Below are positions 1-36,515 of a DNA stretch of 64,000 bases, one piece after another (the stretch's first letter is position 1; each line of letters opens with the position of its first letter). The position numbers and the translations under genes are program-made. Location of the stretch: the NCBI GenBank assembly GCA_051362555.1, contig CM120640.1:61854788-61918787 (forward strand), given 5' to 3'. The notes beneath the pieces are model-generated. The model was not told where the DNA came from. It saw nothing but the letters and a program-made list of their open reading frames with translations, and ran no database searches. This DNA comes from Lingula anatina (lineage: Eukaryota > Animalia > Brachiopoda).

Positions 1-3000
1 GAAACATCACTAGCTCCAGAGAAAAGTGTAGCACTAGCACCAGCAAAATTTATACACTGTTCCCGAGAGTAACACTGGTTATTATGCCAATAAGGTTTAT
101 CAGATGGACAAGCACATCCAGCACGACACGCCAAATTACACGGTACGCCAATGTTTGGTTGCAAGCATGTGGATGAGCATTGAGAAGCACACTGCTGGTA
201 GATCTGTCCGCCAGTGCATGCTGTAAAGCAACAAAGCAGAAGCAAATTAGCTCAGCCACGAAAGAAATGTGCAAAAGAAGCCACTTGTCAATAGAATTGT
301 CGCTAATGTGAAGTATAGCTCCTGCACAAGCAAACAAATGTACAATGCATTGGGAAATAACATTGGCATTTATGCTAGTATGTTTTACCAGTGTAATGTC
401 AGTAAGTGACAGCATGCAGGGAGTGTTTGGTAGAGTAACTTGAGTTGATTGACATGCTCTTATGGTATTTATACAACTGCGCATAATATAAACGAGGGAA
501 AAGGCCGCTAGATATTGCATGAGGTAGAAATAGAAATGAAGAGACCGGCACAGGTAACAACTGGACAGTAGTTAAATAAATAATATGAAAGATAATATCT
601 GAGTTGTATTTGCTACCTGGCTTAACATCAGCAAAAACATCGTCACACCAGTAAAACAATGACTGAATATACATACACTGAGTTGAAACACCACTAGCTC
701 CAGAGAAAAGCGTGGCACTGGCACCAGCAAAATTGATACACTGTTCCCGAGAGTGACATTGGTTATTATGCCAATAAGGTTTATCAGATGGACAAGCACA
801 TCCAGCACGACACGCCAAATTACACGGTACGCCAATGTTTGGTTGCAAGCATGTGGATGAGCATTGAGAAGCACACTGCTGGTAGATCTGTCCGCCAGTG
901 CAAGCTGTAAAGCAACAAAGCAGAAGCAAATTAGCTCAGCCACGAAAGAAATGTGCAAAAGAAGCCACTTGTCAATAGAACTGTCGCTAATGTGAAGTAT
1001 AGCTCCTGCACAAGCGAACAAATGTACAATGCATTGGGAAATAACATTGGCAGTTATGCTAGTATGTTTTACCAGTGTAATGTTAGTAAGTGACAGTATG
1101 CAGTGAATAAGAGCAGGGAGTGTTTGGTAGAGTAACTTGAGTTGGTTGATATGCTCTTATGGTATTTATACAACAGCGCATAATATAAACGAGGGAGAAG
1201 GCCGCTAGAGGTTGCATGAGGTAGAAATAGAAATGAAGAGACCGGCACAGGTAACAACTGGACAGTAGTTAAATAAATAATATGAAAGATAATATCTGAG
1301 TTGTATTTGCTACCTCGCTTAACATCAGCAACAGCATCGTCACACCAGAAAAACAATGAATGAATATACATACACTGAGTTGAAACACCACCAGCTCCTG
1401 AGAAAAGTGCAGCACTGGCACCAGCAAAATTGATACACTGTTCCCGAGAGTAACATTGGTTATTATGCCAGTAAGGATTATCAGATGGACAAGCACATCC
1501 AGCACGACACGCCCGATTACACGGTACGCCAATGTTTGGTTGCAAGCATGTGGATGAGCATTGAGAAGCACACTGCTGGTAGGTCTGTCCGCCAGTGCAT
1601 GCTGTAATGCAACAAAGCAAAAGCGAATAACCTCAGACATAGAAAAATGCGCGAATTAATAGAATTGTCGCTATTGTAAAGTACAGCTCCTGCACAAGCG
1701 AAAAAGTACAATGGATTGGCAAATAACATTGGCAGTTATGCTAGTATGTTTTACCGGTAATACACTGAATGAATATACATACACTGAGTTGAAACACCAC
1801 TAGCTCCAGAGAAAAGCGTGACACTGGCACCAGCAAAATTGATACACTGTTCCTGAGAGTAACATTGGTTATTATGCCAATAAGGTTTATCAGATGGACA
1901 AGCGCATCCAGCTCGGCATTGTCTTGTACACGGTACGCCAATGTTTGGTTGGTAGCATGTGGATGAGCATTGAGAAGCACACTGCTGGTAGGTCTGTCCG
2001 CCAGTGCAAGCTGTAATGCAACAAAGCAAAAGCGAATAACCTCAGACATAGAAAAATGCGCGAGAAATAACCATTTCTTCATTAATTGTAATGACATGCA
2101 AGCATTATACCATCAGCCACCTCGTTTGTTATAAAGTGGGAATCAACCACATTCATTTTGTGCCAATACAAGAAGCACCCCGAAGATTTTTTATGCACAG
2201 CATGGTCCAAACAACCGAATGGAAACTAACGCTATATACATGTTGGGCGCCTACTCACTTTGGCTGACGCCACTTCCACTAAGGGTCATCTGGCACTCCA
2301 TCAGGGTTCGACATTGTCCGTTGTGGAGGTAAGGCTTTGTGCTGGGACATTCACATCCAGATCGACATGGGGCAAAATTGTTGCAGTTTTGGTTCTGGTT
2401 AATGTTGTAACACGTTTTCACATCGCACTTTGACAGGCACTGCGTGAACGTTTGACCTCCGCTGCAAACTATTTGAAAAAGAAACAAAAAGGGAATCGGT
2501 GTTAATCAAATATCAACATCGCTTTCATGCATGGATTAGACAACTCGCAGTAGAGCCTATTTCATTTCCCACATATTGTTTAAATCATTCTTCTATAGTA
2601 ACATTCTATCCTATCTCCAATCACCGTCAGAGACTTACACTGTCCTGCAGTTGCGCCAGCATTGGATCCAGTGCTGGTAATACCTCCATTTATTTGACTG
2701 CATTGGTTCAGGTCGTGACACTGGCCATTGTGTAGGTAGGGCCTGTGAGACGGACAGACACAGCCTGGTTGACAGGGGAGGTTATTACACGTGCGTCTGA
2801 GTTCGAAACATGTATTTGGACATTGAGATGCGCAGTTACTGTAAATTTGTCCACCGGAACATGCTGAAAAAGCCAATTACCAGAGTCAGTTATGGTGATC
2901 AAGTGGATGGTTAGCACGTTTTGCTTTTCACTTTTTTTCATTTTTCACGCATATATAGGCATATACTCGGAGGATTGCAGTTCTCCTTATCCTTGTTGAA

Positions 3001-5540
3001 TTCTGAGAAATTGCCATGGGCGTCCGCAGAGGGGGGTCAATGGGGTCACTCCCCCCCCCCCCCCCCCCCCGGAATTTTGGCGGGCACATTAATTGCGGGT
3101 ACCCAGCCAATCATTATCTCCCACTTCGATGACTTTGACCCCCCCCCCCCGGAAAATTTTCTGCTGACGCCCATGGAAATTGCCAGTTTAAGACTAAGTA
3201 CTGTTGATATTACACGATGAAATGATAGGGAATATCAACAGAACTTAGCCAGTTTAAGACTAAGTACTGTTCATATTCCCTATAATTTCATCATGTAATT
3301 GTTAGTGAAATCATTGATAAAATAATTTGATCAAAGCTGATGAGATACATTTAAATACATCTTGCAAAAAATGTTATGAAGTCTGATACATTTAGAACAA
3401 ATTTGGTGCTATAGCACTTCAAAAAAATTTGAATTCCTCATTTTTGCATGGTCTAAGAAATGATCTGAGTGCTTAGAGAAGAAAAATAGATGTCTGTTAT
3501 TCCAATTGGTATATTTTTTGTTAATTCTACAATATGCAAAAAGCACGCAGCCAGTAGATCTGACTACCAATGCAAGATGGAAGTCGACGACAGGCAATTC
3601 ATCAGGGGAAACCCGTAAACGAGATGTAGGGTGCAGGTTTCGCCTGGAAGTCTATCAGACTATGCATGTATCTACAATGTCGATAAGTTGCAATTTAGTA
3701 AACGCTAATTGCAAAATATAGAATTGTTTCATTGTTGGCGAATCATTGTACATGTACATATGAATTAGTTGATGACTGACAAACCTAAAAGAAAAAGTAT
3801 AGACAGATAATTTAACAAAGCAACAACAAACACACACACACACACGCATGTCACGTTTTCATTTCATTGGTGTGACAAGCTGAACAAGGTTACAAAACTG
3901 ATATACATACACTGGGTTGAACCGCCACTAACGCCACCTGCGTTTGAAACACCACTAGCTCCAGAGAAAAGCGTAGCACTGGCACCAGCAAAATTGATAC
4001 ACTGAGTCTGAGAGTAACATTGGTTATTATGCCAATACGGTTTATCAGCGGGACAAGCGCATCCAGCACGACACGCCCGATTACACGGTACGCCAATGTT
4101 TGGTTGCAAGCATGTAGATGAACACTGAGAAGCACACTGCTGGTAGGTCTGGCCACCAGTGCAAGCTGTAACGCAACGAAGCAGAAAAGAATAAGCTCAG
4201 TCACAGAACATTACAAGCAATGAAACAAATTGAAAATATTAAAACAAAATAAAAAACACTTTAGATTTTCGTTTCATTGGTATGGAACCCGCACAAGATT
4301 ACAAAACTGATATACATACACTGGGTGGAATCACCACTAACACCACCTGTGTTTGAAACACCACTGGCACCAGAGAAAAGCGTAACACTGGCACCAGCAA
4401 AGCTGATACACTGTTCCTGAGAGTAACATTGGTTATTATGCCGGTAAGGTTTATCAGATGGACAAGCGCAACCAGCGCGACACGCCCTATTACACGGTAC
4501 GCCAATATTTGGTTGGTAGCATGTAGATGTGCATTGAGAAGCACACTGCTGGTAGGTCTGTCCGCCAGTGCAAGCTGTAACGCAACAAAGCAAAAGTAAA
4601 TAACTTCAGCTATAGACCATTTTACAACCAATGCTACGAATCAAAAAGTTTTATGAATCACAACAGAGCAGACCAGTGAATTTGTAAATCGCAAGTAATA
4701 TAAAAATAAACCAGTAATTAACGTTATCAGTAGGAAAACACACTGACCCAAAATGTTCAGTGCACAAGCAAAAGAAGACTGGGAAAGATGAAAAGTAACG
4801 TGGGATTTATCAGCGTCACTAGTCAACGAAATAGGAAACGAGATTTTGTCAGAGAGCATGTTCATATATGGCACTCTGTTCATTACCTCGATTAATGGAT
4901 ATGCACTGTGAATCAAAACAATTTTAGCCCATCAATCCCATAAAACAAGCTGAAAAGCACTTTTACAAACAATGAAGCCATGCCGTATTGCAATTAACAT
5001 TTTTATAAGAAAAAATACATACTCTGGCTAGAACCGCCACTAACGCCACCTGTGTTTGAAACACCACTGGCACCAGAGAAAAGCGCAGCACTGGCACCAG
5101 CAAAATTGATACACTGTATCTGAGAGTAACATTGGTTATTATGCCAATAAGGTTTATCAGATGGACAGGCGCATCCAGCGCGACACGCCAAATTACACGG
5201 TACACCTATGTTTGGTTGGTAGCATGTAGATGAGCATTGAGAAGCACACTGCTGGTAGATCTGTCCACCAGTGCACGCTGTAACGCAAAAAAAGCAGAAG
5301 CGAATAAGCTCAGTCATAGAAAACAGTGCAACCAATGCTACATATTGAAAATTTTCTTGACTCACATAATGCATCCATACGATTAATGTTAAACACTTAA
5401 ATAACTCTAAAAATCATTTAAAATTACTTATGCTAGTGGAAATGAAACACAAGCACTAGCAAAGGAGGTGCAGTGAATTTGCAAATAGCATTGGTTATTA
5501 TTTCAATAAACCAGTGATAAAAATAATCAGTAAGTAGATA

Positions 5541-5581
<41 letters not shown>

Positions 5582-8500
5582 CAGTGCATTAGCAAAATAG
5601 ATTGGGAAAGATGAAAAGTAATGTGTGATTTATCAGCCTCACTAGTCAACGAAATAGGAAACAGATTCTGTCGGAGGGCATGAAAATACAAGGAGCTCCC
5701 TTTAACGTCCATTAATTGATATTCATTATGAATCAAAACAAGTTTTAGCCCATCAATCCCATAAAACAAGCTGAAAAGCACTTTTACAAACAACGAAGCC
5801 TTGTCGTAATGCAATAAACATTTTTATAAGAAGATATACATACTCTGGCTAGCACCGCCACTAACGCCACCTGTGTTTGAAACACCACTGGCACCAGAGA
5901 AAAGCGAAGCACTGGCACCAGCGAAGCTGATACACTGTTCCTGAGAGTAACATTGGTTATTATGCCAATATGGTTTATCAGATGGACAGGCGCATCCAGC
6001 GCGACACGCCAAATTACATGGTAAGCCTATGTTTGGTTGGTAGCATGTGGATGAGCATTGAGAAGCACACTGCTGGTAGGTCTGTCCGCCAGTGCAAGCT
6101 GTAACGCAACAAAGCAGAAACAAATAAGCTCAGTCATAGAATACAGTGGAACCAATGCTACAAATTGAAAAAAATTTGACTCACATAATACATCTATGAG
6201 ATTAATGTTAAATACTTATATAACTCTAAAAACACCACCAAAAACTTACTGGTGCTAGTAAAAATGAAACACTACAGGTGCAGATAGAGGCCGTCTTCTG
6301 GGTCTTCCGGAAGACGATCCCAATTTTTCAAGTTTACATTGAAGGTCATCTAATTTGTCTGTCGTTAGACGGTCAAAATGGAGGACGGATGAACAAAGGT
6401 AATTTGGAAGATTGTCAGAAAATATCTCTCGATCCGCCCCTGCACTAGTATTAGCAAAGGGTGTACAGTGAATTTGCAAATGGTATTGGTTATTCTTTCA
6501 ATAAACCAGTGATAAAAATAATGAGTAGGAAGACATAAAACCAAAATATTCAGTGCACTAGCCTTAGCCCATCAATCTCATAAAACAAGCCGAAAAGCAC
6601 TTTTACAAACAATAAAGCCTTGTTGTAATACATACTCTGGCTAGAACCGCCACTAACGCCACCTGTGTTTGAAACACCACTGGCACCAGAGAAAAGCGCA
6701 GCACTGGCACCAGCGAAGCTAATACACTGTTCCTGAGAGTAACATTGGTTATTATGCCAATAAGGTTTATCAGATGGACAAGCGCATCCAGTGCGACACG
6801 CCAAATTACACGGTACGCCAATGTTTGGTTGGTAGCATGTAGATGAGCATTGAGAAGCACACTGCTGGTAGGTCTGTCCGCCAGTGCAAGCTGTAACGCA
6901 ACAAAGCAGAAACAAATAAGCTCAACAATAGAACATTTTGCAACAATGCTACAAATTTAATAGATTTTTGAATTACATAATGCATTTTATTCCATTAATG
7001 CTAAACAATTATATAACTAAAACGTCACTTAAACCTTACTGGTGCTAGTGAAAATAGAACACTGGCGCCAGTAAAGGAAGCACAGTGAATTCCAAAGTGC
7101 ATTGATTATTATTCTTATAAATCAGTGACAAACATCAATTGGAGGAAATCATACATCCGAAATGTTCAGTGCATTTACAAAGTAGACTGGGAAAGATAAA
7201 AAGTAATGTTGCTAAATTATTCAGCCTCGCTAGTCAACGAAAAGGGAAACAAATGTTGCTGGAGAGCAATTAATGGAAATACGTTGTGAATCACAAAAGA
7301 TTTTAGCCCACCAATCCCATAAAACAAGCTGAAAATCACTTTTACAAACAATGAAGCCATGCCGTAATGCAATTAACATTTTTAACAAGTTATACATACA
7401 CTGGCTAGAACCGCCACTAACACCACCTGTGTTTGAAACATCTCTGGCACCAGAGAAAAGCGTAGCACTGGCACCAGCAAAGGTGATACACTGTATCTGA
7501 GAGTAACATTGGTTATTATGCCAATAAGGTTTATCAGATGGACATGCGCATCCAGCGCGACAAGCCAGATTACACGGTACGCCAATATTTGGTTGGTAGC
7601 ATGTAGATGAGCACTGAGAAGCACACTGCTGGTAGGTTTGTCCGCCAGTGCAAGCTGTAACGCAACAAAGCAGAAGCAAATAAGCTCAGCCATAGAACAT
7701 TTTGCAACCAATGCTACAAATTTAAAAGATTTTTGAATCACATAATGCATCTTTACAATTAATTAATTAATGTTAAACAATTATTTAACTCTAAAAACAT
7801 CAGTCAAAACGTATAGGTGCTAGTGGAAATAAAGTATTGGCACCGGTAAAGAAGCGCAGTTAATCTGCACATCGCATTGCCTATCATTCCAATTAAAGAT
7901 TGATTAATTTTATCAGTGGGAAAACACATTAACCCAAAATGTTCAGTGCGCTAGCAAAACAGACTGGGTAAGATTTTAGTTTTTATCAATGTCAATACTC
8001 AACGAAATAGAAAACAGATTTTGCTGGAGAACATGTAAATATAAATACACGGCGCTCTCTTCAACGGATGATGGAAATGCATTGTGAATCAAAACAAGTT
8101 TTATCCCATCATCCCATAAAACAAGCCGAAAAGCACTTTTACAAACAATGAAGCTATGCTGTAATGCATTTAACTTTTTTTATAAGAAGATATACATACT
8201 CTGACTAGAACCGCCACTAACGCCACCTGTGTTTGAAACTCCAGTGGCTCCAGAGAAAAGCGACGCACTGGCACCAGCAAAATTGATACACTGAGTCTGA
8301 GAGTAACATTGGTTATTATGCCGATAAGGTTTATCAGATGGACAAGCACATCCTGCGCGGCACGGCAAAGTACACGGTACGCCAATGTTTGGTTGGAAGC
8401 ATGTAGATGAGCATTGAGAAGCACACTGCTGGTAGGTCTGTCCGCCAGTGCAAGCTGTTACACAATAAAGTGAAAGCTCAGCCATAGAATATTGTTTAAT

Positions 8501-11500
8501 AAAAGCTACAGGTTAAACAAACTTTTTTTATCCCAGAGTGCAGCCGTGTGATTACTGATAAACATTTATATATCTCTGAACACATCACCACAGTAAATGT
8601 CAGCAGACAAGTACATAAACATTCAGAAGTGTAACAGTGGCACCAACGAAGGAAGCATACAGAATTTGCAAGAATGGTTAATATGGCACCAAGCTTTTCA
8701 GTTTAACATACAAGCTTACTTACTTTGGCTGCCGCCACTACCACTAAGGGTCATCTGGCACTCCATCAGGGTTCGGCATTGTCCGTTGTGGAGGTAAGGC
8801 TTTGTGCTGGGACATTCACATCCAGACCGACATGGGGCGAAATTGTTGCAGTTTTGGTTCTGGTTAATGTTGTAACACGTTTTCACATCGCACTTTGACA
8901 GGCACTGCGTGAAAGTTTGCCCTCCGCTGCAAACTATTTGAAAAGGAAACAAAAAAGTAAATAATCGGAGACTTAGAATTGCGCCCTTCTCTTGTACAGT
9001 TGAGCACAATTCCCAATCTTCACAGCATATGCCTGTGTAAATCTCAAAGAAAATATCAATATTCTTTTTGTCAAATAGACATTTGAGACACATTTTGAAA
9101 CTTTCTATATAAATGATACGATAACTGAAAAAGTAATGATTGTCAACACGGTATGTTTGGAAACTGTATCTGCAAGGGGTATTGGTTTTTAATAGCAGTT
9201 AGCCTCATCAGTATGGCAAACACAAGTATGGCAAGTGGAAGTAATCACTCAATACATAAAGGGAAGTTTGGCGGCTGAGTCAAACGTTGTTTTATGGCGA
9301 CGGATTGTAACCTAGTTCCGACGGGATACACACTAAACTGAAACACTACTAACGCCACCTGTATTTGAAACTCCACTGGCTCCAGCGAAAAGCGTAGCAC
9401 TGGCACCAGCAAAATTGATACACTGAGTCTGGGAGTAACATTGGTTATTATGCCAATATGGTTTATCAGATGGGCAAGCGCATCCAGCGCGACACGCCAA
9501 ATTGCACGGTACACCAATGTTTGGTTGGTAGCATGTAGATGAGCATTGAGAAGCACACTGCTGGTAGGTCTGTCCGCCAGTGCATGCTGTAACGTAAATA
9601 AGCAGAATAAATAAGCTCAGCAACAGGACACATAATATTGTGCAATTAAAAAGCAGGTAAAAATACACTGATGAATCCCAAAGTGCATCTGAATCTATAG
9701 GTTAAATGTTAAACGTTATTTTGTTTACAATAAAAGACACACTCTGACTTGACAATTAACAAGTGGTAAAAAAAGGTGAAGCACTTCCATAAGCAAGGGT
9801 GGCGGAGTGGTGGAGTTGAAAGGCACATTGGTTATTTTGACAGTAAGCTTTATCAGTTAATCGAGGGACAGATATAAATATATACCCTGGGTTGAACCAC
9901 CACTAATGCCACCTGTGTTTGAAGCTCCGCTAGATCCAGAGAAAAGTGTAGCACTGGCACCAGCAAAGTTTATACACTGTATCTGAGAGTAACATTGGTT
10001 ATTATGCCAATAAGGTTTATCAGATGGACAAGCGCATCCAGCACGACACGCCAAATTACACGGTACGCCAATGTTTGGTTGGTAGCATGTGGATGAGCAT
10101 TGAGAAGCACACTGCTGGTAGGTCTGTCCACCAGTGCAAGCTGTAAAACAACAAAGCAGAAGCGAGATAAGCTCAGCAACAGAACAGCAAGCCAAATAGG
10201 CCCGAGAAATTCATTGGTGCCTCCATATGGCTTATGTAATACATTTTTTTGTAAAAATGTAAGACACTCTGACTTGAGTAAAAGTTAGGGGAAAATGAAG
10301 CACTATAGCACCACCAAAAGAAGCACACGGAATCGGTTAATATAACAGTGAACTTATTATATGTAAAACAGAATGGATATACTTACACTGTGATGAATCA
10401 CCACTAACACCACCTGTATTTGAAACTCCACTGGCCCCAGAGAAAAGCGTAGCACTAGCACCGGCAAAGGTGATACACTGTATCTGAGAGTAACATTGGT
10501 TATTATGCCAATATGGTTTATCAGATGGACAAGCACATCCAGCACGACACGCCCTATTACACGGCACGCCAATGTTTGGTTGGTAGCATGTAGATGAACA
10601 TTGAGAAGCACACTGCTGGTAAGTCTGTCCACCAGTGCAAGCTGTAACGCAACGAAGCAAAAGCAAATAAGCTCAAAAAGCTCAAAAATTGAATTGTGTT
10701 TAATCAGAGCTGCTTTTCAAACTATTAAGTGCCATCGAGCAACTGCATGATTTATGGTAAATATAATATATATATCTCTGAATTTTATTCAATTTCAGGA
10801 CCATTGACTTGAAAAACACTGACCACAGCAGAGGAAGCACACTGAATCTCAAAGGCACATTGGTTATTATGTCAGTAAGCTTTATCAATTAAGCGAGGAA
10901 CAGATATAAATATATACCCTGGGTTGAACCACCACTAACGCCACCTGTGTTTGAAGCTCCGCTAGATCCAGAGAAAAGTGTAGCACTTGCTCCCGCGAAG
11001 TTTATACATTGTATCTGAGAGTAACATTGGTTATTATGCCAATATGGTTTATCAGATGGACAAGCACATCCAGCACGACATGCCAAATTACACGGTACGC
11101 CAATGTTTGGCTGGAAGCATGTAGATGAACACTGAGAAGCACACTGCTGGTAGGTCTGTCCACCAGTGCAAGCTGTAACGCAACAAAGCAGAAGCGAATA
11201 AGCTCAGCCATTGGTAAAATAACTGAAGAAACAACTGTATTGAACGACAATACATGTACGTGGCATTTTGACGTATTTCACAAAAATAGAGACGCGCAGT
11301 TTTACAGTATTTTGATGAAATTTCAGTGATAACATCAGCAGTAAATGGTTTAAAAGAATGAAGCAATAGTTAAAGTTAAATGAAAGCATCTAAAGCAAAA
11401 AAAGTAAAAATAAAAAGCGAGTTCTCTCACATACAGAAACTAAAATGTTACATGTAAAATTAAGGGACATATCACGCGTTTCTTCTAAATAGAAATTCTT

Positions 11501-14500
11501 TGCAAAGGTTTGCAAATGGCCTTAGATCCAATATCAAAGATTCTTTCTGCCCCATGTTGCACACGTTAAAGCTGTTGGTGGTCTAACATTGCCTTGGAAT
11601 AGTTTAACTTATCCTGTCCTTATTCAATTTCAAACATTTGTACATCACGAAAACTTTATTATTATAGGCATACTTCGACTAATTACTTTAGTGATAGAAA
11701 AAAGTGAAACACTGCCTCAAGCATAGGATGAACATTGCATGTGCAAATACATTGGTTGTCATGGTGGTAATTATGTCTTATCAGTGGGAGTACATATTTG
11801 GTCAAAAACTCGATGGTACCAGCACATTATGTTAGTATAATATGGATGCACATTCAGAGCACGAAGTATATCTGACCTCCAGCGCAAACTTTAATGTAAA
11901 GTTGTGTTATTCATCAGGGTCACTCGTCAAAACGAAGGAGACCTAGAAGATAGGCCAGGCAGTACTTGATGCCTGTACATGATGCCATTGCCAACATCTA
12001 TTAACAGCAATTTCATAAGTTTAAGGAAAATAAAAGGAATATAATTTTTTGAGAACTAACACCCAACATATCGTAAAAAAAAGTTGGATTTCCGTTCCAT
12101 TTGGTTTTAAAAGAACAAGATATACATACACTGGGTTGAAACGCCACCTGTGTTTGACACTCCACTGGCTCCAGAGAAAAGTGTGGCACTGGCACGGGCA
12201 AAGGTGATACATTGTATCTGAGAGTAACATTGGTTATTATGCCAATAAGGTTTATCAGCGGGACAAGCACATCCAGCGCGGCATGGCAAAGTGCACGGCA
12301 CGCCAATATTGGGTTGGTAGCATGTAGATGAGCACTGAGAAGCACACTGCTGGTAGGTCTGTCCGCCAGTACATGCTGTAACGGAAGAAAATAAAAATAT
12401 AGATAAAACAACGAAAGAAATTGCAGAGATGAATGACATCATATGCTCCTCTTGATGTTTACATGAAGATAGTAAGCAATGTAAAACGGTTAATGATCTT
12501 TGATTAGACACGCTGTCAATGACACCCTAGTTAAAAACGTCTAAAAGCACCGGACAAAAAGACTAACATCAACGAAATAATACTGTAATCATTACAAACG
12601 TATTAAGTATTTCTAATCATTGCACGGAATGTTTTGTTAAAATTCTGTGTTCTTTACTTTAAACTTGAAAGGATAAGTATCGTTAACTCATCTAAGCTGA
12701 ATGTACACTGAGTGTCTAGTAAATTATATTAAAAAAGAATGAATTAAGTTAACACGCTGTTACAGTTCTAGAACAAAAGGGTATAAATTAATCATCAGTA
12801 ATAATTGACAGTATAGAAGTTGGGTTACACCATTTAGATATTTTCAAGCAGCATGCTTTCTGACAAGGATATAGATGACAGATAGCAAATAGATAAAAAA
12901 AAAAAAAAGAAGAAGATAGTAACACCACAGTTATGTCTACCTGTAAAGCAAACCATATTGTGAAACTGGTGATCATATATATTAATTCACATGTTAGAAA
13001 GTAATATTGCATATCTTATCTATAAATGAGGAAAATGATACTATGATGAACCTGCAATTGTACGGCACTGAAAATGCCATAGCTTGCATGGCAATTATGA
13101 TTCAACGCCCTTGCATCCAGTAATCCCAACTCATGCATTTCTTGTCGCCTTTAAATGTATATTGACGGCTAGGGAGACACGGTGGGTGTTGTTATCGCTG
13201 TTGTCGTTTCTTGCCCTTTAAAACTCCACCGCTGTAGCATAGACAGGACTTCGTGTACCCTGTATATTGTGTCACGTCACTGATGTTAATGGGCTCACTT
13301 CCAGCATTAAAACGCTACGTAATCTAACTGGTTATGATTGTATTAGAAAAAGGCATAAGCACACTTCTGCCTGATATTCAACCAATTTTCAAAGAGGTAT
13401 GAAAAAATACATTTAGATTGTTGGGAGTATTTGTTATGGGAAACAGAGTTTATAAATTATCTCAAAATGCGAAAGTTGATTTGCAATGCCTCCAAAACAT
13501 TTTCTTTGGTTGTCGATAAGTGTGTTAATAGGTATCCAAACATCAAAATAAACTCAGAAGTTAGTTAAATCATCTGCTGAATGTTGTACATAAATATCTC
13601 AAAGCTATTCAAACAGTTTTGTTATTGTCAGGCTGAGAGATGTCAGTAAGCACACGATAAACTGAGCTTACAATAGATGATTCCTCCCGTACCAGAAGAA
13701 CCAGGCGGACACTGATTTTCCTGGATGCACAATCCGTTATAATTGATAGGACGATACGATGGACACTGACAGCGTGGGACGCATGATTGAGTGCATCGAG
13801 GTCGCCTGTTTATGCAGGTGGCAGTGCAGGCAGACCCACACTGCGTGTATATCTGTCCTCCACTGCAAACTAAAACACGCTATTTGTATTTAACACCAGT
13901 AATGTTACAAATAACAGTTATAACATACAGATTGGTACAACAAAGACTGGTTCAGATACAATAGTGGTTGGCAGTGGAAATGCATGGAATTGTGTTTTTT
14001 TTTTTTAAGTATACGTGTATATGGTGGCTCTATATTTAATCCGTTTGTTCGTTAGATTTACTATTGGAAACGTAAAACCGAAATTAACATCTTCTGTTAA
14101 TTTTGCCCTATAAAAGTAAAGTTCATCAAAATATGTCTAAATTAGACTAAGATGACTAAATTAAAAATATTTCACCCTCAATTCATTTTCTTATCTCCCC
14201 TTCGCCAGATTTAGATGAGTTTCACCAGACTAAAGTTAAACCGATGTTACAAGTCCCATGCCTGTTAACTGAAGTGACATTCATTTTCTACAAGTTAACA
14301 ACCACCTCAATCGTCTGCATCCATTGGTGCTGCATCTATGAATAATTATCTCCATTTAGCTTTCCCTGTAAAATGCGTTTTCCATAAAACGAAAGTGTTC
14401 CACGACGGAATAGATAAACCATGTATTATAAAATTGTTCGCTTACATACGGAGCCGCTGTTCTGAGATGAGATCCAACGGATTCTACTTGGACACTGGTA

Positions 14501-20500: not shown

Positions 20501-21466
20501 CTGCCTAACTGACTGGTGATTCAACTGAGAATCCAAACCGGGTTCTAAATAGGCATTATTTCATATATACTTACATCTCAAGCTTGTCGGTTGAAAGACA
20601 TCGGCAATGTTTGCGTGGAAAGGTGAATGGATTTTTTTACTTCTTTTGTGCAATTATAAATACATCATAATCCTTCCATTTTAACTTATTGTGAACTGTA
20701 GAATTCTGGCATAGAATAGAATGAAAAACGCGGTTGTGTCCCTAAAAGAAAGTTCCCAACACGTCATATAAGGATATTGCGACTTGTAGAGTTTCAAAGA
20801 AGTTAAAACTCGCGTGTTCTTTCTTTCAGCTTCATATAGAGAATATTGTGTTTAACAATAATAAGATGTAACAATAATACATCCAGACCAAATAAATCTT
20901 GTCAATCTTGAATCAAATTTTTAAAACGATCTTTTCAGAAGGCAAGGGTATTTAGTTTTCCATCAAAGAACAGTGAAGCAGTTTCAGATGGTGTATCAAA
21001 CAACTATTGACATATTACAGCCAAATCAAATAATTCCTTGGCGAGAAATACTACATGAAGCGTATTTTAATCGCGCTTTCGATATTTTTATTTAATTATT
21101 TTATTTACATGTTTATTTATTTATTTTATTTTATTTTTTGCTCATACTTAGCTTCACGTGAAGAACCATAATTTCGCTCTTTCCTACCGAAATACATTTT
21201 CATCTATTGTCATCATTTATCTCTGTATGCATAATCTCGAATCTCTGTTGTGTTTTCATTTCAGCTACTTACGTAGTTTAATTGTTTAAAACAGATCATT
21301 TACGCCTTACCATTGTTCTTAAACACAGTTTCATTTTAATATAAAAAAGACTGGTCTTTCTTCCTGGCTCGCATCATACAAGTCAGATGGTTCTACTGTA
21401 GATATTAGTTTTTGAAAAGAAATCTTACCTGGTGCCGGCTGCATGGAGATCCCACTCATCCCCTGC

Positions 21467-21501
<35 letters not shown>

Positions 21502-26438: not shown

Positions 26439-29400
26439 TCAATAATTTGTTGGTTTCTTGCAGTCGCTATCCCTGATGCATTCACCGTTATCGCTCAGTA
26501 CGGGTCTGTCTGCCGGGCACTCACAGCGGGGGACACACTGCAGTGTGCAGAACAGAGCTTCATCACTGCAGGTCCTGGTGCAAGCAGAACCACATTCATT
26601 GAAGACTTGGCCCCCGGAACATTCTGAATTGGAAAAAAAACGTGCCCGTGGAAAATTGATATCCAATTAAAAAAGGCATTAACTGAAAGGCGCTCACCAC
26701 TTTCTCTATCAAACATAAATGTGATAACTGTTAATGAGATTTATCCATTCCCTTTTCCTGTCATATCTCGTCTTTAATGTGTAAAATATACATGCTGAAA
26801 TATACCAACTACTATATGACGTTCTAGTGACTCAAGACAGACAACACACAATTTTTGTATCTTAAGCGCTTCCTTGAACCTAAAATATTACCATCTAGGG
26901 ATATATGTTTCAAATTAGATGTGTCTCTTACTTGGTATTGGGCACTGAGACTTCGTGATACACTGTCCGTTGTGGAAGACTGGTTTATCAGGTGGGCATT
27001 CACATTTTTCCACACATTGCAATGTACACGGCCTAGGAGACTCGAAGACTGTCTGGCACGTTGTCTCGCATGCAGATCCGCACCTATTGAAGACCTGTCC
27101 ACCCGTGCATCCTAATTGTGATAAAAAGTATTAAGTGGCATTCATAAAGAAAATTGCCAGCTCTGTTAAATGAAAATTACAGTGGTATTAAGTTTGATAT
27201 CAGTTGTTTATTCGAAGAAACTGTTATCGTACCATTTTATTACGTGCATATTGAGATTGCTACTTGAGGGTTGTACGGTGTCAGTTATCGTATTTTGAAA
27301 ATTTGTGTAAGATATTGTAAATTTTAAGACCTTGATATAAATTTCTTATTATCCTCAAAATAAGAGATTTAAATCTCTATTGTCCAAACTAGCAAAATGT
27401 TTACAGAATCCAACCTTGTGGCGTTACAGGGCACTGGTTCAAAGGCACACATTTCCCGTTATCCAAAATGGGCGCGTCCTGGGGGCACTCACACTTTTGG
27501 ACACACTGGCGCGTGCAGGCGGGGTTGGGTTCTTGGCAGGTTCTCTCACACACAGACCCACATTCCTTAAACACCTGGCCAGGTATAGGACACGCTGAAT
27601 ACAAACGTTGAGAATAATTACAGGGATCAAAAGCTGTGCATTGATTGAGGTTTACATCATTTTCAATTGTATTTTAAAACCAAATACTGTCTATTGTTTT
27701 CTTTATGTTTCATTTATGATATCATTATTATGATGTAAGCAATGTCACACACGTAACAAGATTAAGGTTAAACAGCGCAGATTACATTTGTTTTAAGTCT
27801 TAACATAAAAATATAATTTTTATCTTCTACAAAAAAGCCTTCGTTCACACAAAGATATAACCCCACATATCAAAATCCATATACCATTCTAATATTGCCA
27901 ATAATCTAAGGGTTACATTCATTATAAATGTGTCAACCTTTATGGCTTTCCTTACAATATGAATCCGTAGGTACATCTACTAAGTAGCAGAGATGCATGT
28001 AGAATGATCAAATGTTAACTTGACTTGACACGTTCGACAAATGAGCCTTTCACACGGTAAAATACAGATATGGCAAACGAAGAGGGGCTTGACAAAGCGG
28101 TTAAAAAGTATACACCTCTTTTCGGTTGGCATAAGAAAAATATCGAGGGAAATTTAGAGCGGTATTACTCGTATTAAATTACGTACTTTTCCTAGGACAG
28201 GCATCATTACTGATACAGTTGCCTTCGTGCAGCAGCGTCCCAGAGGGGCATGCACAGCGGCCGACGCACACCGTTGCACAAATAGGGTTAGGTTCTTCAC
28301 AGGTGGGATCACAGGGGGATGCACACTCGGAAAACACTCGGCCACCGGTGCAGGTTGAATCTATACATGTATAGGTGGTTATACTTCATTTTATTGGCAC
28401 TGATATTTATTTACCTATGAAAAGTTACTGTATGAAACCACACTTCTATGATGAAACATATATACACATATATTTGGAAGGTTCGATTGTCTTTCCCAGT
28501 CTATTTCTTGGTCTGGGTGCAACTGCAAGCATGAGAAAGTTGAACCTGAACTAATTTTGGATGTCCATGGAATTCATTTAAAGGACTAAATCACCTACCT
28601 GGCGGTGGGGGTGCCGTTCGTGCGTCAGGGCACTCGGAAGCTTTGAGGCAGTTTCCGTTGCGTAGAAGTGGTCTGTCGGGAGGACAGTGACATCCAGGGA
28701 CGCACTGAAGAGTGCAGACAATATTGCCCATGTTCTCACACGTGGCGGTGCAGGCAGAACCGCACTCGTTGTACACCTGGCCACCTCTGCAGGACTCTAA
28801 ACCCACATAACAGCACATTAGTATTATGCTTTAAAGTACAACAGTGTATGATAAAGACTTTTGAAAAAAAAGCTATTTTTAGGCAACATGAAGATCAAAT
28901 TCCAGTTTAGACCCAATCGTAGGTTCTAGTAACTAACGTTGAATAAAGCCAAAAGCGCATGGTTTTTTTAAATTCCAGCATAACAAAGGACATAAAATTG
29001 AGAAGCAGTTGTTTCTCTTTTCAACAAAGCGTTGAGGCTTAAAAGACAACATATTTTTTCTTCTTGGCTGCATTATTTGATACGCATGACATTGCCTCAG
29101 CTCACCTCGGACAGGCACGCATACAGGTGGTGGCTGTGGACAGGGGGCAGTAACACAGAATATTGTGTCTTGGACGCAGACCGTTCCACTTGGGCAGTTT
29201 AGATCCTGACATGATAAACAGTAACAAGTTAGAATAACAAATAAGTTAAAAAGTTTTTCCCCACACGTAAGGATCAAAATGCATTGATTGTTATTTTCCG
29301 TTATTTCATTTATCCTTATTATATCATCTACTTATCTATCTCTTTTCACTACACCATATATGTATATTTATTTATTCATTTTTATCTGATTTAGTCTCTC

Positions 29401-32400
29401 TCTCTCTCTCTCTTTCTTTCCCTACTGTAAAATGCTTTTAACATCTGACATTTATTAAATACAAAGCATAATTCTCCCATAAAAACAAATAATACACTGA
29501 ATTAAAGACTGCTGTTAACATTTCAGGAAGTGGGGACATCTCACTTACTGCACATGTGGCCGGAGGTGGCGGTTTTGTTGTGACAGTCGCCGGATCAATA
29601 CCGACAGCACATGTTTGCTGGCACTCTTGCACTGTGTTGAAGTTATTGGCATTGCCTTGGCAACCGCCAAATCCGAACTCCTCACATTGCTTAGTGGCTG
29701 CGTTGTAAAATAATCTTGGGATGCTGGCTCTGCATGGACCGATTTTCTTGGGGAACTCGCACGCAGCTAAAACATAACATATTGAAACAGATGACATGAA
29801 TAAGACCAAAAGGGTAATTGTATAATTGTGTTAACGATAACTCATTATTTGTCAATTTAAATGAAATAAGTATTGTTCTAAACCGATACTCACGATATTT
29901 ATCTAACTGGCCTACAACTTATTTACCTTGGGTCAAATAAAGTAAAAAATGTTTTGATTTTTGGACATAAGTTATTTTGTAATACAACAGCATTAGTGCC
30001 TCACTTACTTAGACACTTTGGGGCGATGAACGGACAATTATCCCCGAAGCAGTCAAATGGTCGGTCTACGCAAAATGTGTCGGGGCTACACAATGTGTTC
30101 TGAAGCGCAAATAATAAAATGATAAATGATAACAGTTTTATTCTTCGCCATTATCATCTGCATTGCGGCTGTGTCCAGTATTTCATGGTCAAGTCCTAGG
30201 TCGCAATGATATGCTATTATATATATTAAAACACTTGGATGAAATCCCCATGTTTTGTTTATAAAAACGCCGTTATAAAATATCTGGAAAAATAGCAATA
30301 TAATAGATCGTTTACGTACGGCGCAAGTGATTGCAGGAGTGGGCCTCCCACAGGTGTTCTCACAAGCTGCTAAAGTTTCGAAGTTATTTTCGTTTGGTTG
30401 ACAGCCGCCATAAGTGAAAGTCTCGCACTGCCCGGTTGCTTGGTTGAAAAAGTATCTATCGACACTGGCAAAGCATGGGCCCGATTTCTTCGGCAGCTCA
30501 CACTGGGCTGAAAATGTAAAAGCGATCCCATCAGTTATCATTAAACTACTCGGCCACCAAAGCCACCTTCTGCATTTATTAATAATATCAGGCATTTTGA
30601 GCCTTATTTAAAAAAAAGCAAATGTTGAAAAGATTATTAATATTAAGAATGGAAGTACATTATTACAAAAAAAGACTTATTTTGACACACAAAAAACTTT
30701 TCACCTCTAGTACTATTTGGGGTATAGTTAGACCCTGCATTAAATTTAGTGAACAAGATACAAGTGTCAAACCGATACTACCTGGATTAAAGTGCAAGGG
30801 TTGAACTTACGAACACAAGTTGGCACTGTCAGACAAGGGGCAGCGACACACTGTACTTCTTTTTCATAGCAGAAAAGATTCAGGTCACACTTCGTGTTCT
30901 AAATAAGATTGAAATTATGTTGATGTGTTGAAAATATGCCACCACATTAAACCCATCACTGGGAGATTTTTTAATATACAGATGTAAGCACAATCGAAGC
31001 TGAAAGGTCGCGTCACATTTCTATGAATATTTATTGTTCTAAATTAGTTTCTGCTTAGTTATTATTCCTCGAGTATGTTAACTCGACCGTGAAATACAAA
31101 GGTGTTATACAAAAATAGAAATCAGTTTATTCATCCAACACATACCTCACAGGTGGGAACAGCCTGAAATGAAAAAAAAGCCGTAGTATTTTCAAATCAT
31201 ATCATATTCAAAATAGGATTTGTATATTTCAAAATTGTGTCCCAATGTATTCAATGTCTTATCTTTTAGTGGAGGGTATATTAAAGATGAGCACATAAGA
31301 TCCGCAGTATTTTAAACGGCGAGTAACCACGTGCTTTAACAGATGGTAAGACAATGAAATGCAATAGGCAATGCCAGTGCTATTTCTGCTACTGTATACG
31401 TATTGTGGACATTTAGTAAATCGACCAATGAACCAAACAACGTACAAGGTCTTCAGTCCTTGCCTTTGAGCCATCATCAACTGGTGCCGCTGAAAAAATA
31501 TTCAACAACTTATTTAAAACGACTGGAATGGGAGAAGGGGTGTGCCAAATATGGACTTGAACAGTTTTGAAAGGTATTCAATTTGATATTTACCCACTAC
31601 ACAGAAAGTCCATCTATTCACAATACCTTATGTTGTGTATAAAACGCAACCTATCTTTTTTAAAATCCTAATATTCTGCAGTATTTGAAAGTATGATAAC
31701 AAAAATCAGACCTTAACAAGCCAATATAATACCAACCAGGAATTGTACTTAACCTACATTCACCATACCATGATTGTTGTTTGGCCTTTACCTTCAGCTC
31801 CGGGACACCTTTCATTCGCCAAGTCATCGACTGTGCTCATGCTCTTCCCCACGCAAGGATTGCTGGTGTCGGGTAATTCCGGGACTTTTCCGTACTGTGG
31901 AGGCACGGCCGTGCCAGGGGCACAGAGTTTTCTGTGGGCTTTCAACCCCAATGTATTGGCACCAAAGTTGTGGGAAATACATTGGAAATAAGCGCATGGG
32001 TTTGTCTCATCGGGCATGAACTGCCCTTCTTTGAAGCAAGCTGATCCATCAACTATATAGAAATTGAAATTTCAATCAAAATAGATCAAAATCTCAAATG
32101 TACTACAAAGAATAATGACTTTTGCCATTTTTATCAGGTTTTCCCTAATTTTTTTTAACCGTAAGTCAAATTTATTGTCTTTTAAATATTCCTATCACGA
32201 TTAAAAATAATACTTCAAGTTATCAACTGTAATAATGGCGAAATATGCATTATAATATCTGTAACATATTTTTAAAAAAATCTTAACAAAATGATAGGCA
32301 GATAAAAAGCTTCAATATAAGTAACACACATGCAGTTTTGAAACTGAAATCTTATCAAAACGAAAATATAACAGGCACAAGTGCTAATGCCGTACAAACT

Positions 32401-35400
32401 AACAAGCTAGCAATCTACATATCCAAACTAAAACACAAAGCAGAGATGACCCTAAAGACCACGTCCTTACGATAAACACTTCCAAGAGCCATCACCGATC
32501 TTGCCGCTAGATCTGTGGCCGTGTCTGACGCTACAACATAGCAAAACTTACTAAGTACAACAGAACAGCCATGCAAAATCATGAGATAAAAAAGAAACAA
32601 ATAAATCCGGCCTGAGTCATAAAAAGAACTAAATCCCATGCTTTAATACTACAATAAAAAACAAAACCAAGTGCTACTAAACATATTAAAAACTACAAGT
32701 AAGAAGACTGAAAATTAAGATTCAGTATTTTCAGTATTAATATTCACATATTATAATTTTAAAAAACATTCAAATATTGTTTTTAGTCTTATGATATTTG
32801 ATGGCCACTGTTTAATAAAAGCTTTTGCCCTTTGACCCTTTTTACATCCAATATATCTGTAGATATTGTTCGGTTTAAGCATATAGGGTAGGTTTTACTT
32901 AATTCGCATATGAGCAGTATTGGATTATGTTCCGTTTATAATGTGCTAGGTAGGTCGATGTGTGAATATGTGTTTACATGTATATACAATTTTGATACAA
33001 ATCTATTAATTATATCATTCAAATCACTGTCCTTACTTTAATGAGTTAAAAAAAAATCCTTTTTTATTCTGTATCTTTGTGCTTTTTTAAAGTTGCTAGT
33101 TCTGATGTATGCTTTCTTTGAATGATGGTACATACAAGTACATTCTGTACACATAGGCCTATATGGATGAAATACAGCATTAAGTACACATAATATAAGC
33201 CTCTCTCCTCCAAACAAGAGCATTTTGCACCTTTTGCCATCTGTAGTTTTAAAAAATCCCTCATACTGATTAGAGCGGCTGATCTGCACCAGTGAGCCCT
33301 ATCTTATGATAAATAAGCGGTATTAGACATGCTTGAGCAATTTCGTTCGTAAAAACGAGTGGCACAATGTGTTTTTAGGCTACATGGTGCATCGTAAGAG
33401 CTGTGCAACTATGCATCAATTAATCTTTTAATGTGAAGGTTTTCAATTATATGGGATGTCTGTTATTTGAAGGTAAATTTCACTGTTTTCTTAATTTTGC
33501 TAAAAAAAACACTGTGCAAATCAAATAGCATGCCAAGATGCATAAAACATTCGGTATTAAAAAGCCGTTTGATAAACATATTATATGTTAAATACGTGCT
33601 AACGACATTCATTCTGGAAATGCAATATCAGTACAATCGCAACAAATGACGCTACCCAAAAGAAACATTGTAGCAGTTGATACACCACAATCTCCTATAG
33701 CACAATGACGACATGCAGCCATGCAACAAACACAGAAGTGTTATCAAGCCCTAAGCCCTTACCTGATACAGTTTTAAAGGGCTTGAAATCTACAGCCTTA
33801 AAAGAAACTGGGACACCAGGTGGTGCAGCGGTCACTGCAACATAAATGTCAAAACGATAATAATCTGTAACTCTCAGAACTCTTACTGTTTCAAACAAAG
33901 CTTTATGGTTTCATTTAATCAACAATTCGTCATTTTGGCTAGGGAACGAATATTAGCGTATTGCATAAAGTATTTCAAGATAAAAATCAAAGCCTTTATG
34001 GTTTACACATTATAATTGGGCGCTGTGTACCGAAAACAAAAACCGGAGGAGTTGGACGTTTTAGGATTAATGTTATTAGTGCATGACACGCGACGTCTGA
34101 CACGTGACGTATGGGTGAAGAAGAATAAAGAGCCTACTCTTGTTGCTCATTAGGCTCAAGTTTTACACTTACCACAGTCAAATTCACATGTTAAGTAATC
34201 TGCTTGTGAGGCAAATAACATAAAAGGGTGATTTAAAGGTACCGTTTGAGAACACCGGAGTTTCAGGACACCGTAGTGCGTCTCATATTATTTCAGACAG
34301 ATACAAATAATACCTGCCATTTAAACTGAAGGTTTTAGTGCTGTGGATAAATGATAAATTAAGAATTCTAAAGGAGTTATTCCCCTGGCCTTTAAATGCC
34401 TTGAGAAGAAAATTACCAAAAACAGTGCTCATATTGTGCAAGATCAAATATGAATATGAATTTCGAAAAGCAGCTGATAGCGTCGTGCGCACAATGCCAA
34501 TTTAAAATTGTTGTTGAAAACTGTAACGTTAGTATTTTGAATTGTAAGAAGTATGTTTCAAATAATAAAACACGTCCCACTTCGACAAAACCATGGTACA
34601 CCATAGTAACCACACATTGAAGAGCCACACAACTTAAACAGACTGACCAGGGCCCGTAACTCGAAAGCATCGCGCATTGCGACCGAGCGCAAGCCTCCAT
34701 GTGATATCGCTATTCGCAAGGCGCGATGCTTTCGAGTTACAGGGCCCAGACAGACGGCTTGCCCTGGCCTTCCTCAGAGACATACCCCTTATTTTTTACA
34801 TCAAAAGCGAAAGCATAATTTTTATAATTTTGACAACAAAAAGAAGCTGTGACTTTATTGTTAAACTTTCACTAACATACATATAACCTCTCCCTGACGT
34901 TGATTGCAACTGAGCTGTGACTTTATTGTTAAACCTTCACTAACATACATATAACCTCTCCCGGACGTTGATTGCAACTGATTTGGTCTGAGCATTTTGT
35001 CATTTGGTCAAAGGTGTGATGAAGTCACCCCTGATTAAGATATGATAAGATGACTTAGCGTCGATATCGGAATGTTAATGGAGCAGTGGGAAGAGGAAAT
35101 CAACGCACTGATGTTCAGTAACGATCTGACAACTATGTTCCACAAGGCACACTTGATACTTCCTCGTTTCACATTGACCGATCATGGTGTGAGTCAAATT
35201 TGGTTCATTTCAGTTCTAGATATGTTTTGAAAAGTCGAATGGAAGATGAATAATTGATAAGATTTAATTGAAATATAATAATGTTCTCGGTTACATTTTA
35301 TAGTTATAGGATAAATAAAAAATAGAAGGATACACATTCAAAAACTGATCCGCCAATTGTTAGTCTCAAATACACTCCCCCTAAGCATACATAGGGCCTA

Positions 35401-36515
35401 CACGTGTATTACGTGGAAGTGTTAAAATTTCTTTCCTTACTATCGCGTGTTTAAATACATCGCTCCATCACGACCCAGCATGTTTTAAAACAATCAAGTA
35501 TTATTTCCTTGTGGTTCGACCTTAATATAATGTTAACCAAAACATCAGATAAAAAATGTCGTGGTCTAAAATGCACTGCCAATATACCCGTAGTACTGGC
35601 TGCCCATCGATTCAATATCTGTCTGAATAATGACTTGTAAGAAACTGGAATTCCTGAACTTAAGCATTAATCATATGCGTTTGTCCAAAACTTTTTCGGT
35701 GTTTTATTGCACCGCATTAAGCAGTTGTGCGATATGTAATCATTTTACAAAAGTAATTTGTCAGGATGCCGACATGTTCTTGTATTTTATTAAAATAGAT
35801 GTGTATTCTCCAAACATAAGCCTTGTAAACTTTTAAAATGTTACTCAGTTTATTTTCAAATGCGAATATATTCGTATTCAACCTGCGTAATTTTTTACAA
35901 GTCGCTCAATCATAAATGCCACCTGATGAATGAAATACATCCGACCGTATATGTGTATACAATCTCCCTCAAGGAGTTTTGGCATCAGACATAAACATAT
36001 AAATGTTGACTTGAAAGACGTCATCAATGAAGGGTTAAGAACTTGGTCTTTCTATTCAATAAAAACATGAAATCATGAAACAGACTCAAATGACGGCCTC
36101 GTTCAGTGATAATGATGAACTTCTACTAAGGGCCACGATACATGTGTACATGTGTATGTGTATATATGTATCCTAAGTCTAAGATTTCTGACACATCTGT
36201 GTGGCCTTGATAAATGAATGGATAAGAATTTAGTAAATCTATCGTTTAAAAGACAAAATTATTAATGCGCCTGATTTCCATCTATCCATCGCATTCTATT
36301 CCTGCTGAATAAAAAAGAGGAATCTGATTTTGTCATAAAATCCAGATTATGATCGACAAATCTACTGCATTGTTCAAGTAGATTTTTTTTATAATAAAAT
36401 TCGATGGACAACTTTAACCGTTTACACACTCACCTTTAGGTGTCTGTGATAAGACGCTTAGCAAAACCAAGACCAGAAGTGGTGCCCGTGCATTTTTGGT
36501 TGTTGTGAGTCCCAT
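26439..36515 (-). CDS. Gene B: secreted CBM14-like / 3x 6-Cys module / 2x Kunitz / 5x TIL multidomain protease inhibitor (~712 aa)
   Basis: 16 phase-consistent exons: 36515-36434 (signal peptide MGLTTTKNARAPLLVLVLLSVLSQTPK), 33834-33763, 32530-32471, 32052-31792, 31489-31446, 31163-31146, 30898-30811, 30507-30320 (Kunitz), 30099-30009, 29766-29549 (Kunitz), 29205-29106, 28796-28599, 28360-28187, 27594-27415, 27111-26932, 26623-26439 (TIL domains, TGA stop). They sum to 2139 nt with an open frame. The first three exons are less certain than the rest. Confidence 0.85.
29549..29766 (-). CDS. Gene B Kunitz/BPTI domain 2 (P1 Arg)
   Basis: CEFPKKIGPCRASIPRLFYNAATKQCEEFGFGGCQGNANNFNTVQECQQTC. Confidence 0.95.
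30320..30507 (-). CDS. Gene B Kunitz/BPTI domain 1 (P1 Phe)
   Basis: CELPKKSGPCFASVDRYFFNQATGQCETFTYGGCQPNENNFETLAACENTC has the canonical Kunitz 6-Cys pattern and the F-x-Y-G-G-C-x2-N-x-N-N-F motif. Confidence 0.95.
34650..34747. mobile_element. Small palindromic MITE in gene B intron 1
   Basis: GGGCCCGTAACTCGAAAGCATCGCGC...GCGCGATGCTTTCGAGTTACAGGGCCC, with arms of about 30 bp. Confidence 0.7.
34846..34981. repeat. Tandem duplication of a 68-bp unit
   Basis: GCTGTGACTTTATTGTTAAAC...GACGTTGATTGCAACTGA occurs twice with two mismatches. Confidence 0.9.

Follow-up and report, generated by a model that had tools for sequence, protein, structure and literature searches.

Organization of the locus

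We analyzed a 64,000-nucleotide (nt) stretch of the Lingula anatina genome (CM120640.1), called the window below and used for all positions, which carries two neighboring genes, A and B, both within 1..36515. The products of both begin with a signal-like peptide, share an N-terminal domain with six cysteines (6-Cys domain), and continue with inhibitor-type modules. Six-frame translation revealed Cys-rich exons on the minus strand only, from 1 to 36.5 kb, and models built with AG/GT exon ends resolved these into two tandem genes, both on the minus strand and both free of internal stops, so that the original prediction of an adjacent same-strand pair held. RNA runs of the species, designated X1, X3, X4, X5, X7, X8, and X9, were compared with the models; for gene B, runs X1, X3, X4, X5, and X7 were used.

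Gene B extends from the ATG at 36515 to the stop codon at 26439 and comprises 15 exons encoding 692 amino acids (aa) with 0 internal stops:

36434..36515, minus strand, exon 1 with start codon and hydrophobic signal-like peptide (gene model; hydropathy; joint 36434-33834 in 15 X7 reads)
33763..33834, minus strand, alternatively spliced exon 2 encoding 24 aa, not of low complexity (gene model; missing from RefSeq isoform X2)
31792..32052, minus strand, 6-Cys domain exon with predicted CBM14-like fold (gene model, predicted structure; yields one shell peptide)
31146..31489, minus strand, linker exon 31489-31446 and 18-nt micro-exon 31163-31146 (RNA joints)
30811..30898, minus strand, Cys6 repeat 1, residues 158-187 (gene model; no Pfam match)
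30320..30507, minus strand, Kunitz domain 1, predicted P1 Phe (Pfam PF00014, E 1.5e-20)
30009..30099, minus strand, Cys6 repeat 2, residues 250-280 (RNA reads, gene model)
29549..29766, minus strand, Kunitz domain 2 and a P/T-rich linker, Arg as predicted P1 (Pfam PF00014, E 2.8e-19)
29106..29205, minus strand, Cys6 repeat 3, residues 353-383 (RNA reads, gene model)
28796-28599, 28360-28187, 27594-27415, 27111-26932, and 26623-26439 (with stop), minus strand, five single-exon TIL domains (Cys pattern, reads, Pfam)

The product therefore carries, behind its signal-like start and the 24-aa segment, the 6-Cys domain, two Kunitz domains and three Cys6 repeats, and finally five TIL domains. The model agrees with RefSeq XP_013385642.1 (L. 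anatina "zonadhesin") at 691 of 692 residues; in RefSeq isoforms X2 and X3, exon 2 and the second TIL are left out. The sole codon difference between window and RefSeq concerns residue 183 (window 30829), where the reads of RNA run X7 carry the other base.

Gene A starts with the ATG at 21648 and is still open at window base 1, with 26 exons and 1,986 stop-free codons inside the window:

21429..21648, minus strand, exon 1 with start codon, signal-like peptide, and poly-Q (gene model; joint 21429-17802 in 13 reads, X7-X9)
17572..17802, minus strand, 6-Cys domain exon with predicted CBM14-like fold (reads, gene model, predicted structure)
17118..17216, minus strand, Q/N-rich exon (reads, gene model, composition)
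16635-16408, 15925-15722, 14652-14446, and 13869-13672, minus strand, four divergent TIL exons (Cys pattern, reads)
1..12375, minus strand, 19 more TIL exons forming an array that is cut by the window edge, with an S/G/A-rich linker per exon (Cys pattern, some reads)

The order is thus signal-like start, poly-Q, 6-Cys domain, Q/N-rich exon, and at least 23 TIL domains. Donors within the array were picked by frame and consensus, and reads support some of them. The array consists of 16 near-identical copies (type a), two of type b (8933-8724 and 2468-2259), and one of type c (2863-2639); its linkers are 61% S/G/A. An assembly artifact as the source of the array was rejected: the duplicated units are 78 to 92% identical with introns included, and the domain cores are under purifying selection (nonsynonymous and synonymous polymorphism per site, pN/pS, 0.044/0.22). 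At positions 1-1758 a recent 684-bp exon-plus-intron tandem duplication is present, 92% identical over 1,089 columns.

The two genes had been predicted to share a start made of signal peptide, low-complexity segment, and 6-Cys domain. The common domain was confirmed (27 of 66 residues identical, 41%; E 6e-16), and in both genes it is encoded by a single phase-1 exon. The signal-like peptides were recognized by hydropathy alone, with peak 9-residue Kyte-Doolittle values of 3.2 and 3.4; the published shell table scores gene B as "transmembrane YES, signal peptide NO" (PMC13425148 supplements). A low-complexity segment is present in gene A only, where 27 of 51 residues are Q; the 24-aa segment encoded by exon 2 of gene B has an ordinary composition.

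Transcript support

Among the joints listed, run X7 covers at least 11 of the 14 gene B introns, each supported by 3 to 22 reads; introns 2, 6, and 10 are not among the X7 joints listed. The micro-exon is supported by 9 reads in which the 15 letters between two joint sides match it. This 18-nt exon (31146-31163) encodes the first Cys of Cys6 repeat 1.

For gene A, runs X7 to X9 contain 13 reads joining exon 1 to the 6-Cys exon (short side 27 nt), 13 joining the latter to the Q/N-rich exon, and 13 leading from there to TIL 1. TIL 1 is joined to TIL 3 in 10 reads, skipping TIL 2, and TIL 3 to TIL 4 in 3 reads. Within the array, joins of the kinds a-a, a-b, b-c, c-b, and b-a were found, some in an order foreign to the window. 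In line with the expectation that transcripts connect the N-terminal exons with the inhibitor exons, reads lead from exon 1 of gene A to its first TILs and show at least 11 introns of gene B; the joints listed include none that runs from TIL 4 into the type-a array.

In runs X1, X3, X4, and X5, only repeats were covered, except for one spliced X4 read. This near-absence of exon coverage in 4 of 7 runs points to a tissue- or stage-restricted expression of the genes. Since most reads are 88 to 95% alike, they stem from diverged individuals. TIL 4 of gene B is joined back to TIL 3 in 20 X7 reads, and coverage is deeper there (26932-27594), which would reflect additional tandem copies in the individual concerned, or else back-splicing or circular RNA.

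Fold and relatives of the 6-Cys domain

The original prediction had cast the 6-Cys domain as an anchor to a chitinous matrix and had named CBM14 domains as binders of chitin. Structure models obtained from 3- and 6-row alignments had a predicted local distance difference test score (pLDDT) of 71.9 for B and 83.6 for A. In Foldseek searches, CBM14 structures occupied ranks 1-4 and 6-8 for the B model, the best being Blo t 12 (probability 0.96, E 0.094), and ranks 1-8 for the A model (best probability 1.00, E 0.047, template modeling score 0.50/0.55). A search independent of Foldseek across 48,161 chains placed six CBM14-type structures on top for both models; for one model, Der p 23 had Z 6.0, root mean square deviation (rmsd) 2.5, and 48 aligned residues, the values for the other were Z 5.1, rmsd 2.3, and 46 aligned residues, and the next unrelated rows had Z 2.6-3.0. 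CBM14-type structures, including Blo t 12, Avr4, Der p 23, CHIT1, and EHEP, hence headed the list in each of the four fold searches, with weak scores throughout (E 0.047-0.094, Z 5.1-6.0). As a lead, a language-model search of the ESM Atlas returned CBM_14 clusters first, at 0.85. These results agree with the earlier reading, and the models indicate that the domain likely has a divergent CBM14 (chitin-binding type 2) fold, with chitin binding as a prediction. Two features of the CBM14 family are absent, namely, a match to the family profile and an aromatic residue after the hairpin Cys.

Homologue searches yielded 1 match among 6 candidates, 4 among 2,207, 1 among 115, and 6 among 1.84 billion representatives; the searches of 6, 2,207, and 115 candidates covered proteins up to 2,000 aa. 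Of the last 6 matches, P0004 and P0008 were dropped, being long repetitive proteins without the Cys pattern. The N-terminal domain of gene A did not appear in any of the searches, three of the four being limited to proteins of at most 2,000 aa. Relatives turned up only in Lingula and the annelid Owenia fusiformis, and as the searches were word-limited, the range may be wider. In Lingula the domain is N-terminal and combined with TSP1 and a C-type lectin domain (two near-identical proteins) or with TSP1 and WxxW. Owenia has a 172-aa protein with two copies and three PAN proteins in which the domain lies behind a P/T-rich linker. With this cargo of TSP1, C-type lectin, WxxW, and PAN domains, the 6-Cys domain is not confined to inhibitor genes.

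Across six aligned 6-Cys proteins, Tyr, Gln, Asp, and Asn-Pro are invariant; the span from Cys4 to Cys5 measures 15 to 22 residues and holds the invariant Tyr, located before Cys5. Three "keratin-associated protein-like" shell proteins of 132 to 147 aa (XP_013398783/749/751) are represented by a peptide that shares the four-residue start of the Cys4 motif (PMC13425148 supplement), so that the domain may be present in these proteins as well, judged by this short sequence.

Inhibitor-type modules

The cargo had been described as at least 23 TIL domains in A and as 2 Kunitz, 3 FOLN-like, and 5 TIL domains in B. A 10-Cys TIL pattern gave 28 minus-strand matches, 23 in gene A (below 16.7 kb) and 5 in gene B (26.4-28.8 kb); all 28 copies have 10 Cys, and all four TIL exons sent to Pfam scored above the cut-off (PF01826). 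Both Kunitz exons, with six Cys each, did so as well (PF00014; 73.6 and 69.5 bits versus a cut-off of 21), and the whole gene B protein matched Pfam in two Kunitz and five TIL stretches and nothing else. The three Cys6 repeats exist, but FOLN-like is a tentative label for them, with 0 of 3 repeats at the Pfam cut-off; for repeat 3, no PDB sequence fell below E 0.46. A second Kunitz shell protein (XP_013385339/338, 135 to 163 aa) is represented by a peptide resembling the end of the gene B Cys6 repeats (PMC13425148 supplement), and the pairing of Kunitz and Cys6 modules may recur in Lingula shell proteins.

In the Kunitz domains, the residue after the second Cys, which we take to be P1, is Phe in Kunitz 1 and Arg in Kunitz 2. 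In the TIL domains, the loop between Cys5 and Cys6 presumably makes the contact with the protease. The 16 type-a copies of gene A are 85 to 99% identical in DNA, and among their 28 contiguous non-Cys triples the Cys5-Cys6 triple is the most variable. The pN/pS values were 0.24/0.37 in the loop versus 0.033/0.21 elsewhere, the latter indicating purifying selection outside the loop and the former little of it within. When the loop codons were left out of tree building, the 3 loop sites, out of 45 non-Cys sites, took 11 of the 30 amino acid changes, a concentration that a uniform null reached in 0 of 100,000 draws; the sequences are few, the tree is weak, and exchange between repeats, which is likely, can inflate such counts. 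The middle residue of the loop is Leu in 11 and Arg in 5 of the 16 type-a copies, with five Leu/Arg switches on the tree; in gene B, TIL 1 to TIL 5 have L, T, R, L, and L at this position. Such a focus of variation on the loop is what one would expect where inhibitors have their reactive sites. The top PDB sequence match of a type-a copy was the inhibitor BSTI (E 1.1e-4).

Occurrence in the shell

Of the matrices that the original prediction had listed as possible locations, the shell found support. In a published shell-matrix proteome, the gene B group XP_013385642/650/661 is represented by 2 unique peptides with 4.4% coverage (Chen et al. 2026, PMC13425148 supplements), one originating from TIL 3 and the other from the 6-Cys domain. 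That study counts gene B among its 54 curated Lingula shell proteins and files it as "immunomodulatory" with Kunitz and TIL domains only (PMC13425148). According to the same source, the Lingula shell contains chitin, its primary layer is rich in glycosaminoglycan, and histones and other housekeeping proteins are present in the proteome as well.

By paralogy and adjacency alone, gene A may be placed in the shell, too. One entry of the shell list, XP_023933310 ("SCO-spondin," 2,362 aa), was weighed as a candidate for gene A and discarded, as the list has it under TSP1 rather than TIL and its peptides are different ones. Luo et al. 2015 describe genes 11761 and 11763, both named "Zonadhesin," as mantle-specific, with 416 and 381 fragments per kilobase per million in mantle and 0 to 9 elsewhere (PMC4595640); they could not be mapped to the locus and serve as a lead only.

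Other features of the window

An unrelated multi-exon gene occupies 56955-64000 on the plus strand and encodes two SANT/Myb domains (Pfam PF00249, E 1e-13 at 62806-63000); its N-terminal exons resemble the nuclear receptor corepressor NCoR/SMRT. Short interspersed repeats at 25814-25849, 34650-34750, 6275-6442, and 3080-3150 attract many partly matching reads in all runs; lying in introns and the intergenic gap, they are probably small elements of transposon origin. A search of Rfam gave 0 matches.

Discussion

We propose that genes A and B encode secreted shell-matrix proteins in which the 6-Cys domain tethers a Kunitz/TIL chain to the chitin-rich scaffold and the chain inhibits serine proteases, a reading to which we assign a probability of about 55%. 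Mantle cells would secrete both proteins, and the N-terminal domain would bind chitin or an associated glycan by a noncanonical surface, for which the invariant Tyr before Cys5 is a candidate. The flexible chain would display the inhibitor loops and so shield collagens and other matrix proteins. Inhibition would follow the canonical mode, with Arg directed at trypsin-like and Leu or Phe at chymotrypsin-, elastase-, or subtilisin-like enzymes. The main targets may be microbial proteases, although these data would also fit the animal's own remodeling proteases. Gene A would represent a high-valency version that arose by tandem duplication of phase-1 TIL exons.

A number of observations weigh against this proposal. 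Pfam returned no family for the 6-Cys domains of A and B at E 3 and none for the relative P0005 at E 5, the domain profile found no PDB sequence at E 10, and no fold match reached E 0.001 or Z 8, where Z values below 8 can mean a common arrangement. The loop pN/pS remains below 1, the tree counts carry the reservations given above, Pro follows the middle loop residue in two type-a copies, and in the first four TILs of gene A the middle residue is mostly Gln or Gly. VWF was the top PDB match of the first gene B TIL, and TIL is also a structural part of VWF and mucins. The join from TIL 4 to the array is missing among those listed for gene A. In human CHIT1, chitin binding requires the aromatic Trp465 directly after the hairpin Cys (PMC4844120), and with equivalence judged by Cys order, F, W, or Y occurs within four residues after Cys5 in 0 of 9 complete 6-Cys copies (the P0023 copy, without Cys5-Cys6, is outside this count). 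Since CBM14 members bind via differing residues (PMC6128652), the absence of one aromatic is not decisive. The intensity-based absolute quantification value of gene B, based on 2 peptides, is 60,249 versus 1,467,400 for a canonical ChtBD2 shell protein, about 1/24 (PMC13425148 supplements). In the shell lists of that source, two motifs sought for gene A gave 0 matches, and 0 of 3 other Lingula 6-Cys carriers were present; a search of the Luo et al. supplement (PMC4595640) found no "Kunitz" entry.

Some of these points would fit a structural matrix or mucus protein instead, in which the TIL arrays, above all that of gene A, are disulfide-rich rods or cross-linkers between S/G/A-rich spacers and inhibit nothing. 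The TILs have VWF and MUC5B among their top PDB matches, poly-Q and Q/N-rich segments accompany the S/G/A linkers in gene A, and the order and number of copies appear to vary among individuals. On the other side, variation is focused on the Cys5-Cys6 loop with a middle residue restricted to Leu or Arg in type a, the gene B TILs are coupled to two Kunitz domains, and VWD and C8 were found neither in gene B nor in the visible part of gene A; we consider the structural account unlikely, if still worth taking seriously. The inhibitors might also be real while the CBM14-fold domain has lost chitin binding and attaches to protein, glycosaminoglycan, or polyphenol or self-assembles. The canonical aromatic is gone in all nine copies, and Der p 23 and Aplysia EHEP, both among the top fold matches, are to our knowledge CBM14-fold proteins without demonstrated chitin binding. 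A domain behind a P/T linker is the layout of carbohydrate-binding tails, and the Owenia arrangement resembles it; this speaks against such a loss, as do the residues that never vary among the six proteins of the alignment (Tyr, Gln, Asp, and Asn-Pro) and the differing binding residues of CBM14 members (PMC6128652). The glycosaminoglycan-rich primary layer and the missing Lingula carriers (PMC13425148) again favor a nonchitin anchor. We regard this possibility as distinctly improbable.

Finally, the products could be defense proteins of mantle mucosa or hemolymph that were carried along in the shell extract and have no role in the matrix. The low number of peptides, the histones and housekeeping proteins in the same proteome, and the authors' class "immunomodulatory" would agree with this (PMC13425148). 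Gene B was nevertheless retained among the 54 curated shell proteins (PMC13425148), and the near-absent exon coverage in 4 of 7 RNA runs points to restricted expression, so that we give passengers very little credence. Going beyond the proposed tethered-inhibitor function, the 6-Cys domain could form a so far unrecognized branch of the CBM14 fold in lophotrochozoans, one that a brachiopod has in common with a tube-building annelid of an early-branching lineage, with a new Tyr-centered site for chitin or shell glycan, and serve as a portable matrix tag for inhibitor, lectin, and adhesion cargo, while gene A would be a variable-copy array whose Leu/Arg switch is driven by the proteases of shell-degrading microbes. 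We put this forward tentatively, as an idea with rather less than even odds.

Protease inhibitors in shells are established, as is the idea of matrix protection (PMC2989941, PMC5854119), which was proposed in 2010 (PMC2989941). To speak of an undescribed system was therefore an overstatement, as gene B had also been catalogued as a Kunitz/TIL shell protein (PMC13425148). Like the Lingula genes, the mollusc shell inhibitor proteins (abalone two-Kunitz protein, perlwapin, lustrin A) place Kunitz-type modules in a biomineral matrix; a CBM14-type anchor on the chain or a long TIL array, the former predicted and the latter present in Lingula, is not mentioned in the portions available of PMC2989941 and PMC5854119. 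The Lingula mineral is apatite on chitin, unlike that of the mollusc systems. The vestimentiferan tube is likewise a chitin matrix with ChtBD2, TIL, and Kunitz proteins, but as described in the available part of PMC8476170 these are separate proteins, whereas gene B has the 6-Cys domain and both inhibitor types on one chain. Insect zonadhesin-like silk proteins share Cys-rich TIL-like repeats, a secreted material, fast duplication, and a proposed protection against microbial proteases; they belong to another lineage and material, and the accessible text of PMC9432349 does not mention a chitin-binding-type or Kunitz domain.

With CBM14/ChtBD2/peritrophin-A (PF01607; CHIT1, tachycitin, Avr4, Der p 23, Blo t 12), the Lingula domain shares six Cys, a predicted distorted beta-sandwich, and modular terminal use; it differs in the missing Pfam match, in the 15- to 22-residue Cys4-Cys5 span with the invariant Tyr, and in having no aromatic right after Cys5. 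Zonadhesin, VWF, and gel-forming mucins have TIL domains in common with both genes, but gene B contains no MAM, VWD, or C8, and gene A, in contrast to VWD-C8-TIL units, shows TIL exons only up to the window edge. Judged by the domains encoded within the window, neither qualifies as a zonadhesin, and the RefSeq name is a TIL-driven best-hit label. The text and supplements available of PMC13121700 contained nothing further on these genes, and titles and abstract openings (subscription journals being outside this scope) gave no description of the 6-Cys domain or of a CBM14-Kunitz/TIL fusion. What is new is a Pfam-invisible CBM14-like module common to a brachiopod and an annelid, its fusion to inhibitor arrays, and an array of 23 or more TILs with Leu/Arg switching.

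The published list assigns gene B no chitin-binding-type domain, although one of its two peptides derives from the 6-Cys domain (PMC13425148). Because Pfam does not see the anchor, counts of chitin-binding-type proteins in the matrix proteomes of brachiopods and annelids may be too low. Shell proteomes often include protease inhibitors, and the gene pair lends itself to asking how these are retained in the matrix and what they oppose, as it offers anchor and inhibitors on one chain, single-exon modules suited to separate expression, and naturally occurring Leu and Arg versions of the predicted specificity site.

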